Assembly: GCA_045646605.1 (NCBI GenBank)
Contig: JAZRLA010000015.1
Span: 137,054 to 201,053, forward strand
DNA: 64,000 bases
Direction: 5' to 3'
DNA from: Candidatus Enterousia sp.
Lineage (GTDB): Bacteria; Pseudomonadota; Alphaproteobacteria; Rs-D84
This document shows positions 6,897 to 56,458 of the stretch, piece by piece (the first letter of the stretch is position 1; every line of letters begins with the position of its first letter). The notes beneath the pieces are model-generated. The model did not search any database and was not told where the DNA came from. It saw only the letters and a program-made list of their open reading frames with translations. Position numbers and translations under genes: made by a program.

Positions 6897-8183
6897 ATGA
6901 CAGAATTAAATAAAAAATTCGGCTTTACAGAAGAACAGTTAGAACAGTTTGATGACGATCTTAGAAATGGCGGAAGAGACGGTAGAAGAGCACAAATACC
7001 CAAAGAGGTTTTGGCGATACTGGGTGATTATTACGTGCAATTGATTGAAAAATCCGTTCAGGCGACCGAAAAAGGTATGTCACACGAGGATGACATAGCT
7101 TCAGTAAGTCACCCTTTGTGCCATATTTACGAAGATGGTTTGATGGCCAATGAATTATATCGCCCGATTGGTGATATTTTGTTAGATAAATTGATTGAAA
7201 AGGCCGAACAGGGGTATTACAGCCATGCAAATCGTTCAATAGATGGTTATTGGCGCAGTGTGAAAGATAATAAAGATGCCCAGAAAGGATTGAAAACGAT
7301 ATTAGAAAAACATCCTAACTATGCATTTGGGCAGAAATATTTATCATACATGAATGGTGCCAGTCCCGAAGACGAAATGGCGATGATACAAAGTTATATT
7401 GAAAACCCAGATATGTATTTTGTTACCACAATTATGGTCGATATTGATGGCACACTTATTCGAAACGGTAAAGCCAATGATAATTTGATAGATTCAATTA
7501 TTGGTCGTAAAAATATCGCCATTTATACGGGTGGGGACCCCGTGAGCCAAAAGAAAGTTCTTGTAAAGGCAATCGCAGAAAAAATTTTGGAAAAATTCCC
7601 TTTGATAAAGGAAGATTTTTCTGTGGATACTATTGTAAATATTTATTCCCAAGATAATGAACAGAATATAGCATTGCGTGAGAAGTTATCACGCACACTA
7701 AGAGACAAAATCTGGGGTTTGTTTTTCAACCAAGAACCTGGCAATAAAGTTGATGCCCATATGATAGATGATATGGCGAACCGGGCTAAACGTATTTTGG
7801 AATTTCTAAATCGTTTAACGGCAACAGGTGGTGATCAGATTAAAATTTATCCAAAACAGGCATTCGCGCAGGAAAATATTTGTTTGGCCGACACTGTGAT
7901 TGATGATACCCAACCAGCCGCCCAGGGAATGAAAAGTCTTTATTCAGCGTGTCTGACCCCAGGTGAATCCCCGTTTTGGGTGAAAGAGATCAGGGGTGTC
8001 GAAAGGGGAATATCCAAAGAACGCGAAATAACGGCAGAGCAAGCTTTTGCTATGTATCAGCAAAAATGTAAAGAAAACATGATTGCGGGCGCTAAACAAG
8101 TTGATAAGCTAAGTGCTACCGAACAGAAAGCAACGGCTTTTTCTGATTCGTGTAAAACCGATGTTAAAAAAACTACTAGATAG
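6897..8183 (+). CDS. hypothetical protein with a central HAD-like phosphatase motif
   Basis: 'FVTTIMVDIDGTLI' matches HAD motif I (hhhhDxDGTL). Large flanking regions are unknown. Bracketed by A elements. Confidence 0.45.
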   Translation: MTELNKKFGFTEEQLEQFDDDLRNGGRDGRRAQIPKEVLAILGDYYVQLIEKSVQATEKGMSHEDDIASVSHPLCHIYEDGLMANELYRPIGDILLDKLIEKAEQGYYSHANRSIDGYWRSVKDNKDAQKGLKTILEKHPNYAFGQKYLSYMNGASPEDEMAMIQSYIENPDMYFVTTIMVDIDGTLIRNGKANDNLIDSIIGRKNIAIYTGGDPVSQKKVLVKAIAEKILEKFPLIKEDFSVDTIVNIYSQDNEQNIALREKLSRTLRDKIWGLFFNQEPGNKVDAHMIDDMANRAKRILEFLNRLTATGGDQIKIYPKQAFAQENICLADTVIDDTQPAAQGMKSLYSACLTPGESPFWVKEIRGVERGISKEREITAEQAFAMYQQKCKENMIAGAKQVDKLSATEQKATAFSDSCKTDVKKTTR

Positions 8184-8196
8184 TACGAAACCAGAA

Positions 8197-8371
8197 TAGT
8201 GGGTAGTGTAAGTGATTAGTGTTAGTGCGGGCGCGTTTGCGCCCGTTTTTGCGACACCCCGGCCTGCGGCCACCCCTCTAGCCAGATGGGAACTTTGCTT
8301 TCTGGAATAATTTCACAATCACGGATTGATTCCAGAAACTACTAACCACTTCCCACTAACACTAACCACTA
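8197..8371. repeat. palindromic repeat element A with embedded hairpin and element B
   Basis: Contains the A arms and core, the hairpin GCGGGCGCGTTTGCGCCCG, and a B copy at about 8253-8295 (GACACCCCGGCCTGCGGCCACCCCTCTAGCCAGATGGGAACTT). Confidence 0.7.
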
Positions 8372-8710
8372 AAACGCATTTTTCGTCCAATCTATGTGCC
8401 ATCCGTGGACGATAATAACATCAAACCGCGCGTCACCACACCAACGCCGCTGCAGCAAAAATGTTTCCGCCGCCAATCGCAGCCGCCTTTGTTGCGCGGA
8501 CGTAATCGCACCCCACGCCGCCATCACATTTTTGCGCTTTTTTACTTCGACAAAGATAATAAGTTTTCCGCGTTTTGCAATTATATCAATCTCTGCGCGC
8601 CCCGTATTTCGCCCGGTCGTATAACGCCGATGCAAAATCCGAAATCCATGCAATACCAAAAAAGCGCATGCAAAAAATTCTGAAAAAATTCCGGTCTTGT
8701 ATGAATCCAT
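8369..8710 (-). CDS. yraN: YraN-family (UPF0102) endonuclease
   Basis: 113 aa with 'GRAEIDIIAKRGKLIIFVEVKKRK', typical of YraN. Confidence 0.65.
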   Translation of the reverse strand: MDSYKTGIFSEFFACAFLVLHGFRILHRRYTTGRNTGRAEIDIIAKRGKLIIFVEVKKRKNVMAAWGAITSAQQRRLRLAAETFLLQRRWCGDARFDVIIVHGWHIDWTKNAF

Positions 8711-42881: not shown

Positions 42882-44813
42882 ATGCTGCACACATCCGACT
42901 TTGATTTTGAATTACCCCCGGAACTTATCGCATCGCACCCACTTGCGCGTCGTGACGCATCCCGTATGTTGGTGGTGGAACCAAGTTCCCCTCCGTTGGA
43001 TGGGTGCCCGCAGGGCGGGGTGGGGGCGAAAGTTCCCCTCCTGTGGAGGGGTGGCCGAAGGCCGGGGTGGTCTTTTGAAGCGTGTAAATTCGGCGCAAAC
43101 TTCAAATTGCCTTTTAATAAAAATTTGGTGGAACGTGCCCGCAAACTTCGTAAAGCAGGTAGTTTACCAGAAGCGTTATTATGGAAAGAAATTAAAGGCA
43201 AGCAAGTAAATGGTTTAAATTTTGATAGGCAAAAAGTTATCGGAAATTACATAGTGGACTTCTTTTGCCCAGAATTGGGGATTGTTATAGAAATAGACGA
43301 TAAAACGCACGACTTTAAAGCTGAATATGACGAAAAAAGAGAAAAATATTTGCGCAGTCTTGGGCTGGAAATAATACACATCAGTGCCAAAGATGTTTTA
43401 GAAAATCCGGCATCCGTTGCGTTGTGGTTAAAGACCGCCCCGGCCTTCGGCCACCCCTCCACAGGAGGGGAACTTACCCTCTCCGACAAACATATACGCA
43501 ATTTTTTGGATTACCTGCGCCCTGGTGATGTGGTTGTGTTTAACAATTCGCGGGTGATTCCGGCGCGTTTTGATGCGGACGGTTATGAAATCACATTGCA
43601 TACCGCGGTTGATGACAAAAATTGGTGGGGCCTGTGTAAAAAATTCAATAAAATAAAAGTTGGCGATACACTTACCATGGCGGACGGCACAACAATTACG
43701 GTTGTGGACAAAGACGATGAAAGTGGCCTTTTGCTGCACTTTAATTGCGATAATGTATTTGATGTCTTGAACCGTGTTGGAAAGATGCCATTGCCTCCAT
43801 ACATGAAACGCGATGCCGAAATCGCCGATCAAACGCGCTATCAAACGGTTTATGCGGACCCACTTGGGTCAATGGCGGCACCGACGGCGGGTTTACACTT
43901 TACCGATGAATTGATGCGTGAAATAGAGGCACGTGGCGCGAAAATCGTGAAAATCACACTGCATGTCGGCGCGGGAACTTGGATGCCGGTCAAGACCGAA
44001 AATCTGTCCGAACATAAAATGCACAGTGAATGGTGCCAAATCACACCGCAGCAAGCCGGAATCATAAACGCCGCAACGCGTGTAATCGCCGTTGGCACAA
44101 CAACGCTCCGCACATTGGAATCCGCCGCGTCAAGTTCCCCTCCTTTGGAGGGGTGGCGGGTAGCACCCGCCGGGGTGGTTAGAGACACCGCAAACTATCG
44201 CACATTACCATTTAACCCAAAATTAAAAGAGCGTGCACGCGAATTGCGGCATGCGGGCAGTTTGCCCGAGGCATTATTGTGGAACGAAATCAAAAATAAA
44301 AAATTAAATGGTCTGGATTTTGATAGACAGAAAATAATTGGAAATTACATCGTTGATTTCTTTTGTGCGTCAAAATTTTTAGTTATCGAGGTTGACGATA
44401 AAACCCATGACACAAAAGTTGATTATGATAGGCAGCGTGATGAATATCTAAAATCTTTAAATCTTGCAGTGATACATATCCAGGCCAAAGATGTCTTGCA
44501 AGACCCTCACGGTGTTTTTAACTGGCTGTCTAACCACCCCGGCACTTCGTGCCACCCCTCCAACGGAGGGGAACGTGCGCGTGTCGCACCAATCTGCCAA
44601 ACCACAGATATCTTTATTACACCCGGTTACAAATTCCGCGTGGTTGATGTGTTGCTGACGAATTTTCATTTGCCACGGTCAACACTTTTTATGTTGGTGT
44701 CGGCGTTTTCGGGATTCGCCGAAATGAAGGCGGCATACGCCCACGCCATCGCCGAAAAATACAGATTCTTTAGTTATGGCGATTGCTGTTTGTTATTTAG
44801 AAAGGATAATTAA
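42882..44813 (+). CDS. queA: S-adenosylmethionine:tRNA ribosyltransferase-isomerase QueA with two in-frame insertions
   Basis: QueA N-terminus, middle and C-terminus are separated by two insertions of about 150-167 aa. Each encodes a DUF559-like domain. Total 643 aa against about 340 typical. Confidence 0.8.
   Translation: MLHTSDFDFELPPELIASHPLARRDASRMLVVEPSSPPLDGCPQGGVGAKVPLLWRGGRRPGWSFEACKFGANFKLPFNKNLVERARKLRKAGSLPEALLWKEIKGKQVNGLNFDRQKVIGNYIVDFFCPELGIVIEIDDKTHDFKAEYDEKREKYLRSLGLEIIHISAKDVLENPASVALWLKTAPAFGHPSTGGELTLSDKHIRNFLDYLRPGDVVVFNNSRVIPARFDADGYEITLHTAVDDKNWWGLCKKFNKIKVGDTLTMADGTTITVVDKDDESGLLLHFNCDNVFDVLNRVGKMPLPPYMKRDAEIADQTRYQTVYADPLGSMAAPTAGLHFTDELMREIEARGAKIVKITLHVGAGTWMPVKTENLSEHKMHSEWCQITPQQAGIINAATRVIAVGTTTLRTLESAASSSPPLEGWRVAPAGVVRDTANYRTLPFNPKLKERARELRHAGSLPEALLWNEIKNKKLNGLDFDRQKIIGNYIVDFFCASKFLVIEVDDKTHDTKVDYDRQRDEYLKSLNLAVIHIQAKDVLQDPHGVFNWLSNHPGTSCHPSNGGERARVAPICQTTDIFITPGYKFRVVDVLLTNFHLPRSTLFMLVSAFSGFAEMKAAYAHAIAEKYRFFSYGDCCLLFRKDN
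43031..43475 (+). mobile_element. TIR-flanked DUF559 endonuclease-domain cassette, in-frame in queA (copy 1)
   Basis: 42-bp inverted B elements sit at 43031-43072 and 43434-43475. Interior encodes a DUF559 domain ('GNYIVDFFCPELGIVIEIDDKTH'). An extra degenerate B half-copy lies at 42984-43027. Confidence 0.6.
44133..44576 (+). mobile_element. TIR-flanked DUF559 endonuclease-domain cassette, in-frame in queA (copy 2)
   Basis: Inverted B-like elements at 44133-44178 and 44535-44576. Second DUF559 domain ('GNYIVDFFCASKFLVIEVDDKTH'). Same ~444-bp size as copy 1. Confidence 0.6.
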
Positions 44814-44814
44814 C

Positions 44815-45921
44815 ATGTCACTGAAATTTTGTCTTTTAGCAACGGACGGAAATGCGCGGCGGGGGGCGGTTGAAACCGCGCACGGAACTTTTCAAACGCC
44901 GGCGTTTATGGCGGTTGGTACGGCGGCAACGGTCAAGGCACTGACCATGGACCAAGTAGCGGCGACGGGAACCCAGGTTATTTTGGGCAACACATATCAT
45001 CTGATGATGCGGCCCGGCGGTGACTTGGTGGAAAAGATGGGTGGATTGCATAAATTTAGCGGTTGGCACGGGCCGATTTTGACGGACAGTGGCGGTTTTC
45101 AGGTTATGTCGCTTTCGAACCTTGTTAAAATGAAAGAAGAGGGCGTAGAGTTCACTTCGCACATTGACGGCGGGATAAAACACTTTTTGCGCCCCGAAGA
45201 TTCCGTGCATATTCAACACCAACTTGATTCCAATATCACAATGGTTTTGGACGAATGTTTGAAACTGCCCACAACGCGTGCACGTGCGGAAAAAAATGTT
45301 GATATGGTAACGCGTTGGGCGGCGCGCAGTAAAAATGCGTTTGTTGACCGCCTGGGCTATGGTATTTTCGGCATTGTCCAAGGTGCGGATTATAAAGATT
45401 TGCGTGAAAAGTCCGCACGGGAACTGACCGCGATTGGGTTTGACGGGTACGCAATCGGCGGACTGGCCGTCGGAGAACCGCAAAGCGTTATGTTTGATAT
45501 GATTGCAACGGTCACGCCAATGTTGCCGACAGACAAACCGCGGTATTTGATGGGGGTTGGAACACCGCTGGATATACTGGGCGCGGTGGAACGCGGTGTT
45601 GATATGTTCGATTGCGTCATGCCAACGCGCGCGGGTCGTACGGCGATGGCGTTCACGCGACATGGCACAATGAATATGCGCAATGCGAAATATCGCGATG
45701 ATGATGCGCCACTGGACGACAAATGTGGTTGCCCTGCATGCAAGCTTTCGCGCGCGTATTTGCACCACTTGATTAAGTGTAACGAGATTTTAGGCTCAAC
45801 ACTTCTTACACAACATAACCTTTGGTTTTATCAAGACCTGATGCGCGATATTCGCGAAAGCATAGAGCAGGGCCGTTTTGCCGAGTTTAAGGCAGAATTT
45901 ATAAAGAATTATATGGGTTAG
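44815..45921 (+). CDS. tgt: queuine tRNA-ribosyltransferase
   Basis: 'MSLKFCLLATDGNARRGAVETAHGTFQTPAFMAVGT' Tgt N-terminus and 'CGCPAC' zinc site. Start set just after the queA stop. Confidence 0.85.
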   Translation: MSLKFCLLATDGNARRGAVETAHGTFQTPAFMAVGTAATVKALTMDQVAATGTQVILGNTYHLMMRPGGDLVEKMGGLHKFSGWHGPILTDSGGFQVMSLSNLVKMKEEGVEFTSHIDGGIKHFLRPEDSVHIQHQLDSNITMVLDECLKLPTTRARAEKNVDMVTRWAARSKNAFVDRLGYGIFGIVQGADYKDLREKSARELTAIGFDGYAIGGLAVGEPQSVMFDMIATVTPMLPTDKPRYLMGVGTPLDILGAVERGVDMFDCVMPTRAGRTAMAFTRHGTMNMRNAKYRDDDAPLDDKCGCPACKLSRAYLHHLIKCNEILGSTLLTQHNLWFYQDLMRDIRESIEQGRFAEFKAEFIKNYMG

Positions 45922-45963
45922 TTCTCCTCCTGTGGAGGAGTACGGCGAAGCCGGGAGGTGGTC
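45920..45963. repeat. solo element B (double-hairpin) immediately after the tgt stop
   Basis: AGTTCTCCTCCTGTGGAGGAGTACGGCGAAGCCGGGAGGTGGTC. Confidence 0.6.
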
Positions 45964-46042
45964 TTTTTGAAAAAATAATTTTCCGTTGCAATGAAATTTG
46001 TTTCTTTGTTAAAATGAAAATAATTAAAACAAAGGAGCAAAC

Positions 46043-47017: not shown

Positions 47018-47113
47018 AATGGGAATTTGATGCCGCCCCATCGGGGCGGCATTTTGTTTGACCAAGATAGCATTTTCTGATAAAATTTATATGAAAAAAC
47101 AAAAGGATTATAT

Positions 47114-56329: not shown

Positions 56330-56458
56330 ACAATTGTTTGATTTATTGCGCACCCCGCAATCGCGGGGTGTTTTTTGTCGTATGGTTACTATTTCCCTTG
56401 TATTTGTTATAAAAAAACTGTATTATCTTTGCTGAATTTTTAACAAAGGATTTTATAA

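Follow-up and report, generated by a model that had tools for sequence, protein, structure and literature searches.

Introduction

Several described systems place mobile DNA within or beside conserved genes, and they are compared here with a pair of insertions in queA of Candidatus Enterousia sp., found in a 64,000-nucleotide stretch of contig JAZRLA010000015.1 (the window). Each insertion is a cassette comprising a DUF559 (Pfam PF04480) domain, of the Vsr-like PD-(D/E)xK nuclease fold, set in frame between terminal inverted repeats (TIRs) that form GC-rich double hairpins. We are highly confident that this is a mobile, translated nuclease cassette bounded by its TIRs.

Vsr-like (EDxHD) homing endonucleases, such as I-Bth0305I, are known from ‘fractured genes’ and other settings; their genes sit in group I introns, between the halves of split inteins, or split the host gene, and they carry an extra DNA-binding region (PMC2677866, PMC3239194). 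The queA cassettes share with them the Vsr-type fold, fixed positions in conserved genes, sporadic distribution, recent horizontal spread and degeneration, but involve no intron, intein or gene fracture. A domain of approximately 105 residues is instead read through in the host protein, bracketed by inverted hairpins and with no separate DNA-binding region. A C-terminal fusion of DUF559 to a SPOUT methyltransferase has also been noted (PMC1829167). The likeness to inteins lies in the in-frame selfish insert in a conserved protein, the nuclease expressed by host translation and the cycle of invasion, degeneration and loss. Unlike inteins, the cassettes have neither a Hint splicing domain nor junction nucleophiles, and the insert is predicted to remain.

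[quoted passage not shown] Short, stop-free palindromic repeats lying in frame in housekeeping genes, apparently at tolerated loops, are common to RPEs and to our element, a likeness of behaviour, and it is the single and TIR-pair forms of the cassettes that behave as RPEs do. The full-length form carries a nuclease between its repeats, whereas no encoded protein or partner enzyme has been reported for RPEs. TIRs bound our unit as they do TIR transposons and MITEs in general, but it carries no transposase of the DDE, HUH, serine or tyrosine type.

Repetitive extragenic palindromes (REPs, as pairs REPINs) and their associated tyrosine transposases (RAYTs) offer a further parallel. RAYTs are HUH/Y1 transposase-like enzymes located between genes. 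As in the REP/RAYT system, a single gene is flanked by inverted hairpin repeats that are also dispersed as short copies, and the hairpin structure is kept while the stem sequence varies. The cassette enzyme is in contrast a PD-(D/E)xK nuclease and not of the HUH/Y1 type, and the unit can reside in frame inside coding sequence. Finally, in the mitochondrial DNA of Allomyces, Paquin, Laforest and Lang reportedly described GC-rich double hairpins together with a mobile endonuclease ORF (open reading frame) joined in frame to atp6. The shared traits, such hairpins in a genome richer in AT and next to an in-frame endonuclease ORF, would make this a lead only; those elements are said to be organellar, to involve another nuclease family, and were reportedly not presented as a TIR-bounded unit.

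Homing genes, RPEs and MITEs, REP/RAYT and inteins each have a defining feature that the element lacks. We regard it as a homing-type selfish nuclease gene that joins TIR hairpins to in-frame residence free of splicing, and the chance that it deserves a class of its own is substantial. The first-pass annotation of the window, a reading of the letters alone, knew of no described family with this architecture. The open-access papers and bioRxiv preprints that we searched likewise contain no description of the in-frame TIR-DUF559 architecture or of the repeat sequence, and a report elsewhere is possible.

Organisation of queA and its cassettes

The queA ORF encodes 643 residues and its reading frame is open across both cassettes. 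The QueA core is retained as three segments, residues 1-34, 199-416 and 567-643, delineated by Pfam and by alignment to insert-free orthologues. The Queuosine_synth match is broken into three stretches (E = 5.6e-110) and the QueA equivalog models NF001140 and TIGR00113 are passed, again in three stretches, at 397.5 bits (cutoff 324) and 340.4 bits (cutoff 267), respectively. Foldseek recovers the QueA folds 1yy3 and 1vky from the same protein. DUF559 is matched twice with high significance (E = 1.8e-53; 179.5 bits against a cutoff of 20.6). These results agree with the initial reading of a 643-residue QueA holding two complete DUF559 domains, with the host frame open through the repeats and the nuclease.

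Each cassette runs in frame from an inverted double-hairpin repeat through a complete DUF559 domain to a second repeat. When AAGTT...AAC(T/G)T is taken as the boundaries, both units are 446 bp long (A, 43030-43475; B, 44132-44577), so that the near-equal size reported earlier stands with the values, 445 and 444 bp, amended. The inverted hairpin repeats proposed as boundaries are likewise present, with a first loop of three nucleotides, TGT, and not TGTG. The arms of cassette A (43030-43075 and 43430-43475) are 46 nt long, 98% complementary and 354 bp apart. Those of cassette B fall into two pairs, 44131-44157 with 44551-44577 (27 nt, 93%) and 44169-44183 with 44529-44543 (15 nt, 100%), and the hairpin between the two arm pairs differs in sequence on the left and the right. 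Five occurrences of the core motif TTCCCCTCCnnnGGAGGGGTGGC are present in the window, every one of them within queA, where 0.01 would be expected; the fifth is the single repeat at 42983-43023. A six-frame search placed DUF559 nowhere else in the window.

Cassettes A and B belong to different sublineages, with approximately 66-73% DNA identity to each other. The suggestion that one element replicated twice into the gene is thus right as to two in-frame copies, which are not recent duplicates of one another. Insert A appears longer, at approximately 164 residues, because a single repeat lies directly 5′ of the cassette (Table 1).

The nuclease domain

The catalytic D...E-x-D...H pattern is intact in both window copies and is matched by 116 of the 120 inserted domains in the set of QueA relatives described below; two of the four misses are failures of the search pattern on intact motifs. 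The residues were mapped onto Vsr by motif and not by superposition of structures. AlphaFold models the two domains with a pLDDT (predicted local distance difference test) above 90 over most of each. Fold matches were obtained with 3HRL (template modelling score, TM, 0.75), the homing endonuclease I-Bth0305I (3r3p, probability 1.00, TM 0.68) and, more weakly, 1vsr. The only solved relative by sequence is 3HRL (E = 1.1e-15). The whole-protein model is poor at the QueA termini, with a predicted TM score (pTM) of 0.46, and for that reason loop exposure was not read from it.

Between the window and the allele L004 the DUF559 core gives a dN/dS of 0.05, similar to the 0.05-0.06 of the surrounding queA. 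The domain is under purifying selection and therefore translated. The cassette is translated as part of QueA, and the mature protein is predicted to retain the insert as an additional domain carried on disordered linkers.

The Pfam scan of the whole protein returned only Queuosine_synth, DUF559 and MTES_1575, with no Hint or intein domain, and no intron or other Rfam family matches at queA. The 446-bp unit contains no transposase, DUF559 being its only coding content, and the PHROGs collection gave only weak matches of unknown function. No Vsr model was matched; the sole nuclease-family match among NCBIfam models, NF007294 (DUF559), is below its cutoff. The Vsr mismatch-repair endonuclease proper was considered and is ruled out, there being no Vsr equivalog match and no Dcm-type partner next to queA, which has era and tgt as its flanking genes.

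In the fold search the DUF559 domains also match large-subunit proteins of the Toxoplasma and Tetrahymena mitochondrial ribosomes (9i05, 9g6k and 6z1p; probability up to 1.00), a structural similarity that suggests recruitment of DUF559-fold domains into mitoribosomes.

The hairpin termini

The consensus terminus reads AAGTT-CCCCTCC-nnn-GGAGGGG-TG-[variable hairpin 2]-GGGGTGGTCTTT. Hairpin 1 is CCCCTCC-TGT-GGAGGGG with its 3-nt loop. Hairpin 2 is hypervariable in sequence and length, with 126 distinct versions; the stem is almost always perfect and often closes on a GNA-type triloop. The mean minimum free energy of these variants is -8.8 kcal/mol, compared with -5.3 kcal/mol in shuffled sequences. 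Since the stems are near-perfect despite 126 variants, it is structure and not sequence that is conserved in hairpin 2.

The repeats have no stop codon in any of the six frames, as judged by inspection of the cassette A TIR. The peptides they encode are Gly/Pro-rich and modelled with low confidence (pLDDT < 50), and are probably flexible linkers.

Two arrangements elsewhere bear on the repeats alone. In a metagenome-assembled genome (MAG) of Fimbriimonadaceae (L108:497-1438) seven 45-bp direct copies of the terminal repeat follow a DUF559 gene and encode NHPGLTATPxEEGNG repeats, and at L019:1216-1397 three left TIRs are spaced 80 bp apart. Judged by these tandem arrays, terminal repeats can amplify locally.

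Presence and absence at two loops of QueA

Relatives of the window QueA were drawn from uncultured gut, rumen and termite-gut Alphaproteobacteria by a protein search with the window sequence, the nearest being gut and rumen MAGs that include Candidatus Enterousia. Insertion positions are numbered on the insert-free orthologue P0103 (360 residues). Inserts always follow residue ~33 (site A) or ~258-273 (site B). Among the query and 120 matches, a sample that the query biases towards insert carriers, ten proteins have no DUF559 domain, 102 have one and nine have two. Four alleles were aligned with the window at the DNA level: L001, empty at both sites, L002 with a cassette at B only, L004 at A only, and L005 at both. 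The alignment of orthologues that had been suggested at the outset thus yields two fixed insertion loops with presence/absence polymorphism.

Even insert-free alleles bear footprints, since site B of L001 (L001:805-1887, encoding P0103) holds LAAGARSASAGDARCGGGLN, a single copy of an unrelated repeat, NPALAAGSQSASNCDARCGGGL, which in P0102 and P0097 flanks a second DUF559 lineage. A target motif was sought in the ‘empty’ sites of L001 and L002 and rejected: these sites resemble the right TIR end, whereas truly naive sites (VVDGNNVSDK and others) do not. On this comparison they are better read as footprints. Related strains, then, show empty, footprint-bearing and MITE-like sites.

Recent transfer and site switching

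Outside the cassettes, queA of the window shares 83-88% identity with queA of the other genomes. Cassette B of the window is by comparison 99.1% identical to that of L005 (4 differences in 446 positions) and 99.6% identical to that of L002 (2 in 446), when 55-57 differences would be expected from the divergence of the hosts (P = 2e-20 and 6e-24, respectively). The tract of high identity stops within approximately 25 bp of the outer TIR ends. Cassette A has, at 89.7% identity to L004, diverged like its host. Presence or absence at a fixed site, combined with divergence of the element far below that of the host, is the pattern by which homing genes are recognised, and it is the pattern in these alignments. 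They show a TIR-bounded unit that is polymorphic at two permissive queA loops and that, by its sequence identity, was recently exchanged between diverged genomes.

L005 has a B-type cassette at site A, the left TIR of which can be aligned with the single copy 5′ of cassette A in the window. For this reason site A of the window seems to have been occupied twice, and the single copy is probably, from its sequence, the remnant of an earlier cassette like that of L005. The same two queA loops also accommodate a second, very different DUF559 lineage (...KKLWY...FRRQY...ADFVC...EVDGSQH...) with its own unrelated repeats, so by sequence at least two lineages with different repeats share these sites. 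When the inserted domains are clustered at 75% identity, 5 of the 18 clusters, the four largest among them, mix members from site A and site B; the cassettes have therefore switched repeatedly between the two.

Decay products

Copies in various stages of degradation were recovered. At site B of L005 the catalytic histidine is replaced by arginine, in P0060 only a fragment of DUF559 is left, and the L019 cassette, with its own ATG, has lost the catalytic core by internal deletion. Related genomes contain TIR-spacer-TIR elements of 117-171 bp, which are MITE-like, and single TIRs lie in frame at the queA loops. The peptide KFPSIGGEL of P0061 corresponds exactly to the 27-nt palindrome that recombination between the two hairpin 1 copies would be expected to leave. 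The sequences show a decay series, from nuclease-dead and truncated copies through MITE-like TIR pairs and single hairpins to the 27-nt palindrome. Polymorphism at two loops, discordant divergence and these decay products support what had first been proposed, a compact selfish element of TIRs plus nuclease.

Distribution beyond queA

A HMMER search of 1.84 billion representative proteins gave 16,325 clusters (50% identity) that match the cassette at E ≤ 0.001. Searching with cassette B retrieved free-standing DUF559 proteins of 130-220 residues from many phyla, covering 95-99% of the query at 55-65% identity. These homologues, which range from Desulfuromonas to Bacteroidota, include the repeat-encoded ends (NSPPLEGWQAQPDGVV ... 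HPALxGTPPxEGN). L122 provides an example in DNA, an intergenic, TIR-flanked DUF559 gene with its own start codon in a MAG that also has a queA cassette.

A metagenome scan produced 80 loci. All 24 with at least 66% identity are in queA; those with 47-63% identity are free-standing or embedded in large ORFs. The lineage of the cassette thus behaves as gene-specific and homing-like, not as a promiscuous transposon, because close relatives (at least 66% identity) were found only in queA. Among related metagenomic copies with enough flanking DNA (47-85% identity, many taxa), 68 of 73 lie between the arms of an inverted repeat of 14 nt or more, nearly always (A/G)TTCCCCTCC-nnn-GGAGGGGTG, a motif that can be written (A/G)TTCCCCTCCnnnGGAGGGGTG. 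These flanks show this DUF559 subfamily to be linked, at the level of sequence, to one conserved hairpin motif.

Scanning a genome collection for the motif gave at least 119 loci, mostly in MAGs of gut Alphaproteobacteria (Candidatus Enterousia and termite ‘Rickettsiales bacterium’); among the matches listed others are in Verrucomicrobiota, Kiritimatiellia and Bacteroidota, and approximately a quarter of the repeat copies are within long ORFs.

Host genes were sampled by Pfam scanning of 30 long proteins with an internal DUF559 domain, chosen from the best 150 matches. They comprise HsdS, Type ISP C-terminal specificity domains, Eco57I/MmeI-like (Type IIG) and N6/N4 methyltransferases, class II fumarase, Mur ligases, class-V aminotransferase and cofactor-independent phosphoglycerate mutase (iPGM); additional hosts are a Prolixibacteraceae Type ISP enzyme and an HsdR fragment. 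In the examples inspected, hairpin-encoded peptides flank the embedded domain. The embedded copies recovered are all in frame and in sense orientation, and since they were found through intact ORFs, disrupted or antisense insertions would be missed. Within that limit, the expectation that TIR-DUF559-TIR units would be found in other genes, with the frame kept, is borne out, in many phyla and in free-standing form as well.

One loop of Planctomycete fumarase is naive in P0399 and P0432, carries only a left and a right TIR in P0391, and holds a full cassette in P0249 and P0387. The queA picture is reproduced here in another phylum and another enzyme.

Two side observations concern restriction-modification hosts. 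The embedded copies scanned with Pfam are strikingly often in specificity modules of restriction-modification enzymes (HsdS, Type ISP_C, TaqI_C), and the 1323-residue Type ISP ORF of a Prolixibacteraceae MAG (L113:1298-5266) has approximately ten in-frame hairpin repeats and one DUF559 cassette in its C-terminal specificity domain.

Proposed mechanism

We propose that each insert is a copy of a small selfish element whose sole gene encodes a DUF559 (Vsr-like) nuclease and whose ends are inverted GC-rich double hairpins. The nuclease would be made as a passenger domain of QueA or, in free-standing copies, from its own ATG. It may recognise either its conserved hairpin ends or the DNA of sites that are unoccupied or have a single hairpin, and nick or break the DNA there; host recombination and repair would then copy the cassette in from an occupied template, in a gene conversion that resembles homing. 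Where a previous visit has left a single hairpin, this may act as a landing pad, which would explain the repeated switching between queA sites. Insertions that are in frame, in sense, stop-free and in surface loops of expressed genes would persist as the host protein still works, consistent with the low dN/dS of queA. Taken whole, with its mechanism, we judge this explanation on balance to be probable. The particular step of hairpin-directed break and repair, which we infer, is put forward more tentatively, at somewhat less than even odds.

A number of points weigh against this explanation. The nuclease activity is a prediction, and its target and cleavage site are putative. The naive and empty sites of relatives share no target motif between the two queA positions, and no target-site duplication is evident at the queA sites or at 14 MITE-like copies, the ancestral empty sites being not exactly known. 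A long, gene-specific target is hard to imagine because the domain has only approximately 105 residues and no DNA-binding module, yet close relatives are confined to queA. Purifying selection on DUF559 would also fit a role that benefits the host. Among the motif matches listed DUF559 is present at approximately 14 loci; most hairpin copies are single or MITE-like with no DUF559 nearby, and another enzyme could therefore mobilise them. Co-conversion of the flanks extends at most ~25 bp and is not statistically secure: on its left, cassette B is preceded by 24 identical bases, which is only marginally unexpected, and on the right there are none. No phage or plasmid vector was found, the phage and plasmid collections holding no close relative and best matches that are only 33-42% identical.

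Alternative explanations

Several alternatives should be addressed. Do the repeats and the nuclease belong to one element? Has the insertion been adopted by its host? Could the cassette be inverted, or removed before QueA is mature?

The main rival separates the repeats from the nuclease. The repeats would be an independent REP- or RPE-like family, spread by another enzyme or by replication and recombination at hairpins, with DUF559 trapped between them and moved by homologous recombination between repeats or queA alleles. That most repeat copies are single or MITE-like, that palindromic repeats could promote recombination by themselves and that nuclease activity of DUF559 is a prediction only all speak for it. 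Passive carriage is, on the other hand, hard to reconcile with a motif that travels with the DUF559 subfamily across phyla (68 of 73 copies flanked), with strong purifying selection on a domain that has kept its catalytic residues, and with a transferred tract that coincides with the TIR-to-TIR unit. We regard it as unlikely.

A domesticated, vertically inherited insertion that adds function to QueA in this clade, absences being secondary losses, would account for the purifying selection on host and insert, for the confinement of close relatives to queA and for the very high prevalence among the retrieved QueA relatives, a prevalence biased by the query. It is largely refuted by discordant divergence, the cassette being 99% identical where its hosts share only 83-88% identity. 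The occupation of the same loops by two unrelated DUF559 lineages and several repeat families, site switching, decay products and footprints, and the same TIR-DUF559-TIR unit in unrelated enzymes and in free-standing form also argue against domestication, which is improbable. Nor are the domains, as was entertained at the outset, fixed in unrelated lineages that lack the repeats.

The near-perfect 46-nt inverted repeats, 354 bp apart, could instead form a switch. The TIR pair would flip the cassette, which in the inverted orientation brings in stop codons with the downstream frame kept, and turn queA off; flipping back would turn it on, making queuosine modification phase-variable. ‘DUF559 domain-containing protein’ is enriched among predicted targets of programmed inversion, with an odds ratio of 14 (PMC9881135), an enrichment in favour of a switch that may simply reflect the TIRs. 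There is no invertase nearby and every copy seen is in sense orientation, in a search biased towards intact ORFs. We consider an inversion switch very improbable.

Removal of the insert after transcription or translation, in the manner of an intron, intein or bypass, would leave a mature QueA with no inserts, and the long complementarity of the TIRs could indeed loop the insert out of the RNA. The lack of a Hint or intein domain and of an intron or other Rfam family makes such removal scarcely credible, as does a frame that continues uninterrupted across repeats and domain in over 100 variants, with a dN/dS of 0.05, needless for a spliced RNA and expected for read-through. A repeat-induced chimera of metagenome assembly, suggested by the MAG origin of the window and its relatives and by the ability of repeats to mis-join contigs, can practically be discounted. 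The architecture, always in frame and with a host-like divergence of cassette A, recurs in GTDB genomes and in assemblies from NCBI, ENA, JGI and Logan, which supply over 100 protein clusters, and more than 100 independent assemblies display it.

Other features of the window

The coordinates of the queA features and of two further copies of the repeat family are listed in Table 1.

Table 1. Positions of the cassette components and related repeats within the window.
Feature	Position	Strand	Evidence
queA ORF, 643 aa	42882..44813	+	ORF, Pfam, NCBIfam, orthologue alignment
Single left-type hairpin repeat, encodes SSPPLDGCPQGGVG, abuts cassette A	42983..43023	+	85% identical to 43030-43070; aligns with left TIR of L005 site-A cassette
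Cassette A left TIR: AAGTT-CCCCTCC-TGT-GGAGGGG-TG-GCCGAAGGC-CGGGGTGGTCTTT (hairpin 1, hairpin 2, GGGGTGG box)	43030..43075	+	
Cassette A DUF559 (Vsr-like PD-(D/E)xK), aa ~76-180, D...E-x-D...H intact	43107..43421	+	
Cassette A right TIR, reverse complement of left TIR, 98%	43430..43475	-	
Cassette B left TIR: hairpin 1 44137-44153, hairpin 2 44155-44171, then GGGGTGG box	44132..44183	+	
Cassette B DUF559 domain, aa 447-547, motif intact	44220..44522	+	
Cassette B right TIR, other hairpin-2 sequence, same architecture	44529..44577	-	
Lone intergenic copy of this repeat family, flanked by convergent genes	8225..8296	-	
Degenerate single repeat copy directly after tgt stop codon (TAGTTCTCCTCCTGTGGAGGAG...GGAGGTGGTCTTTTT)	45921..45965	+	

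The intergenic copy sits between genes at 6897-8183 (+) and 8369-8710 (-). Another GC hairpin (8228-8245) comes before it, and the arms of a 22-nt AT-rich inverted repeat (8206-8227 and 8354-8375) enclose it. The degenerate copy could double as a terminator-like hairpin after tgt. Two further perfect GC-rich hairpins, at 47030-47052 (ATGCCGCCCCATCGGGGCGGCAT, 10-bp stem) and 56351-56370 (CACCCCGCAATCGCGGGGTG), have no TIR motif and may be terminators.

The neighbourhood of queA varies. A Peptidase_M16 gene lies between queA and tgt in L002 and L005; in the window tgt directly follows queA (44776-45921 compared). L004 and L005 have an ORF of 132-136 residues, with no Pfam match, between era and queA that is missing in the window. 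The C-terminus of the window QueA is four residues shorter than in relatives, ending ...FRKDN* as opposed to ...FRKENQDEI*.

Implications

It is nearly an even question, and we lean narrowly against affirming it, whether the hairpin-flanked DUF559 cassettes constitute a distinct class of mobile element that spans phyla. In such a class a minimal Vsr-like nuclease, recognising the double hairpins conserved at its own termini, would mobilise itself and its MITE-like and single-hairpin derivatives and would live in genes as a passenger domain, a ‘splicing-free intein’ or ‘coding-sequence REP/RAYT’. If true, this would explain what much of the DUF559 family does and provide a source for in-frame palindromes of the RPE kind.

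Some consequences are practical. Annotation should treat oversized ‘fusion’ proteins (QueA, fumarase, MurC-like ligases, HsdS and others) as a host protein plus a mobile insert, and these TIRs may be what is predicted as ‘programmed inversions’ at DUF559 genes. For protein engineering, the insertion sites mark loops that are permissive in nature, and a small hairpin-specific nuclease could serve as a reagent.

For the biology of such genes, the element would represent a third way, besides introns and inteins, for a nuclease gene to reside inside essential genes, as an additional domain that is tolerated on its flexible linkers. In-frame palindromes such as RPEs would gain from it an ‘autonomous partner’ model; these are elements whose origin and mobility have been in question since 2000. 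DUF559 is a very large family of unknown function, and the tie of one subfamily to a hairpin terminus and to mobility gives it a testable role.

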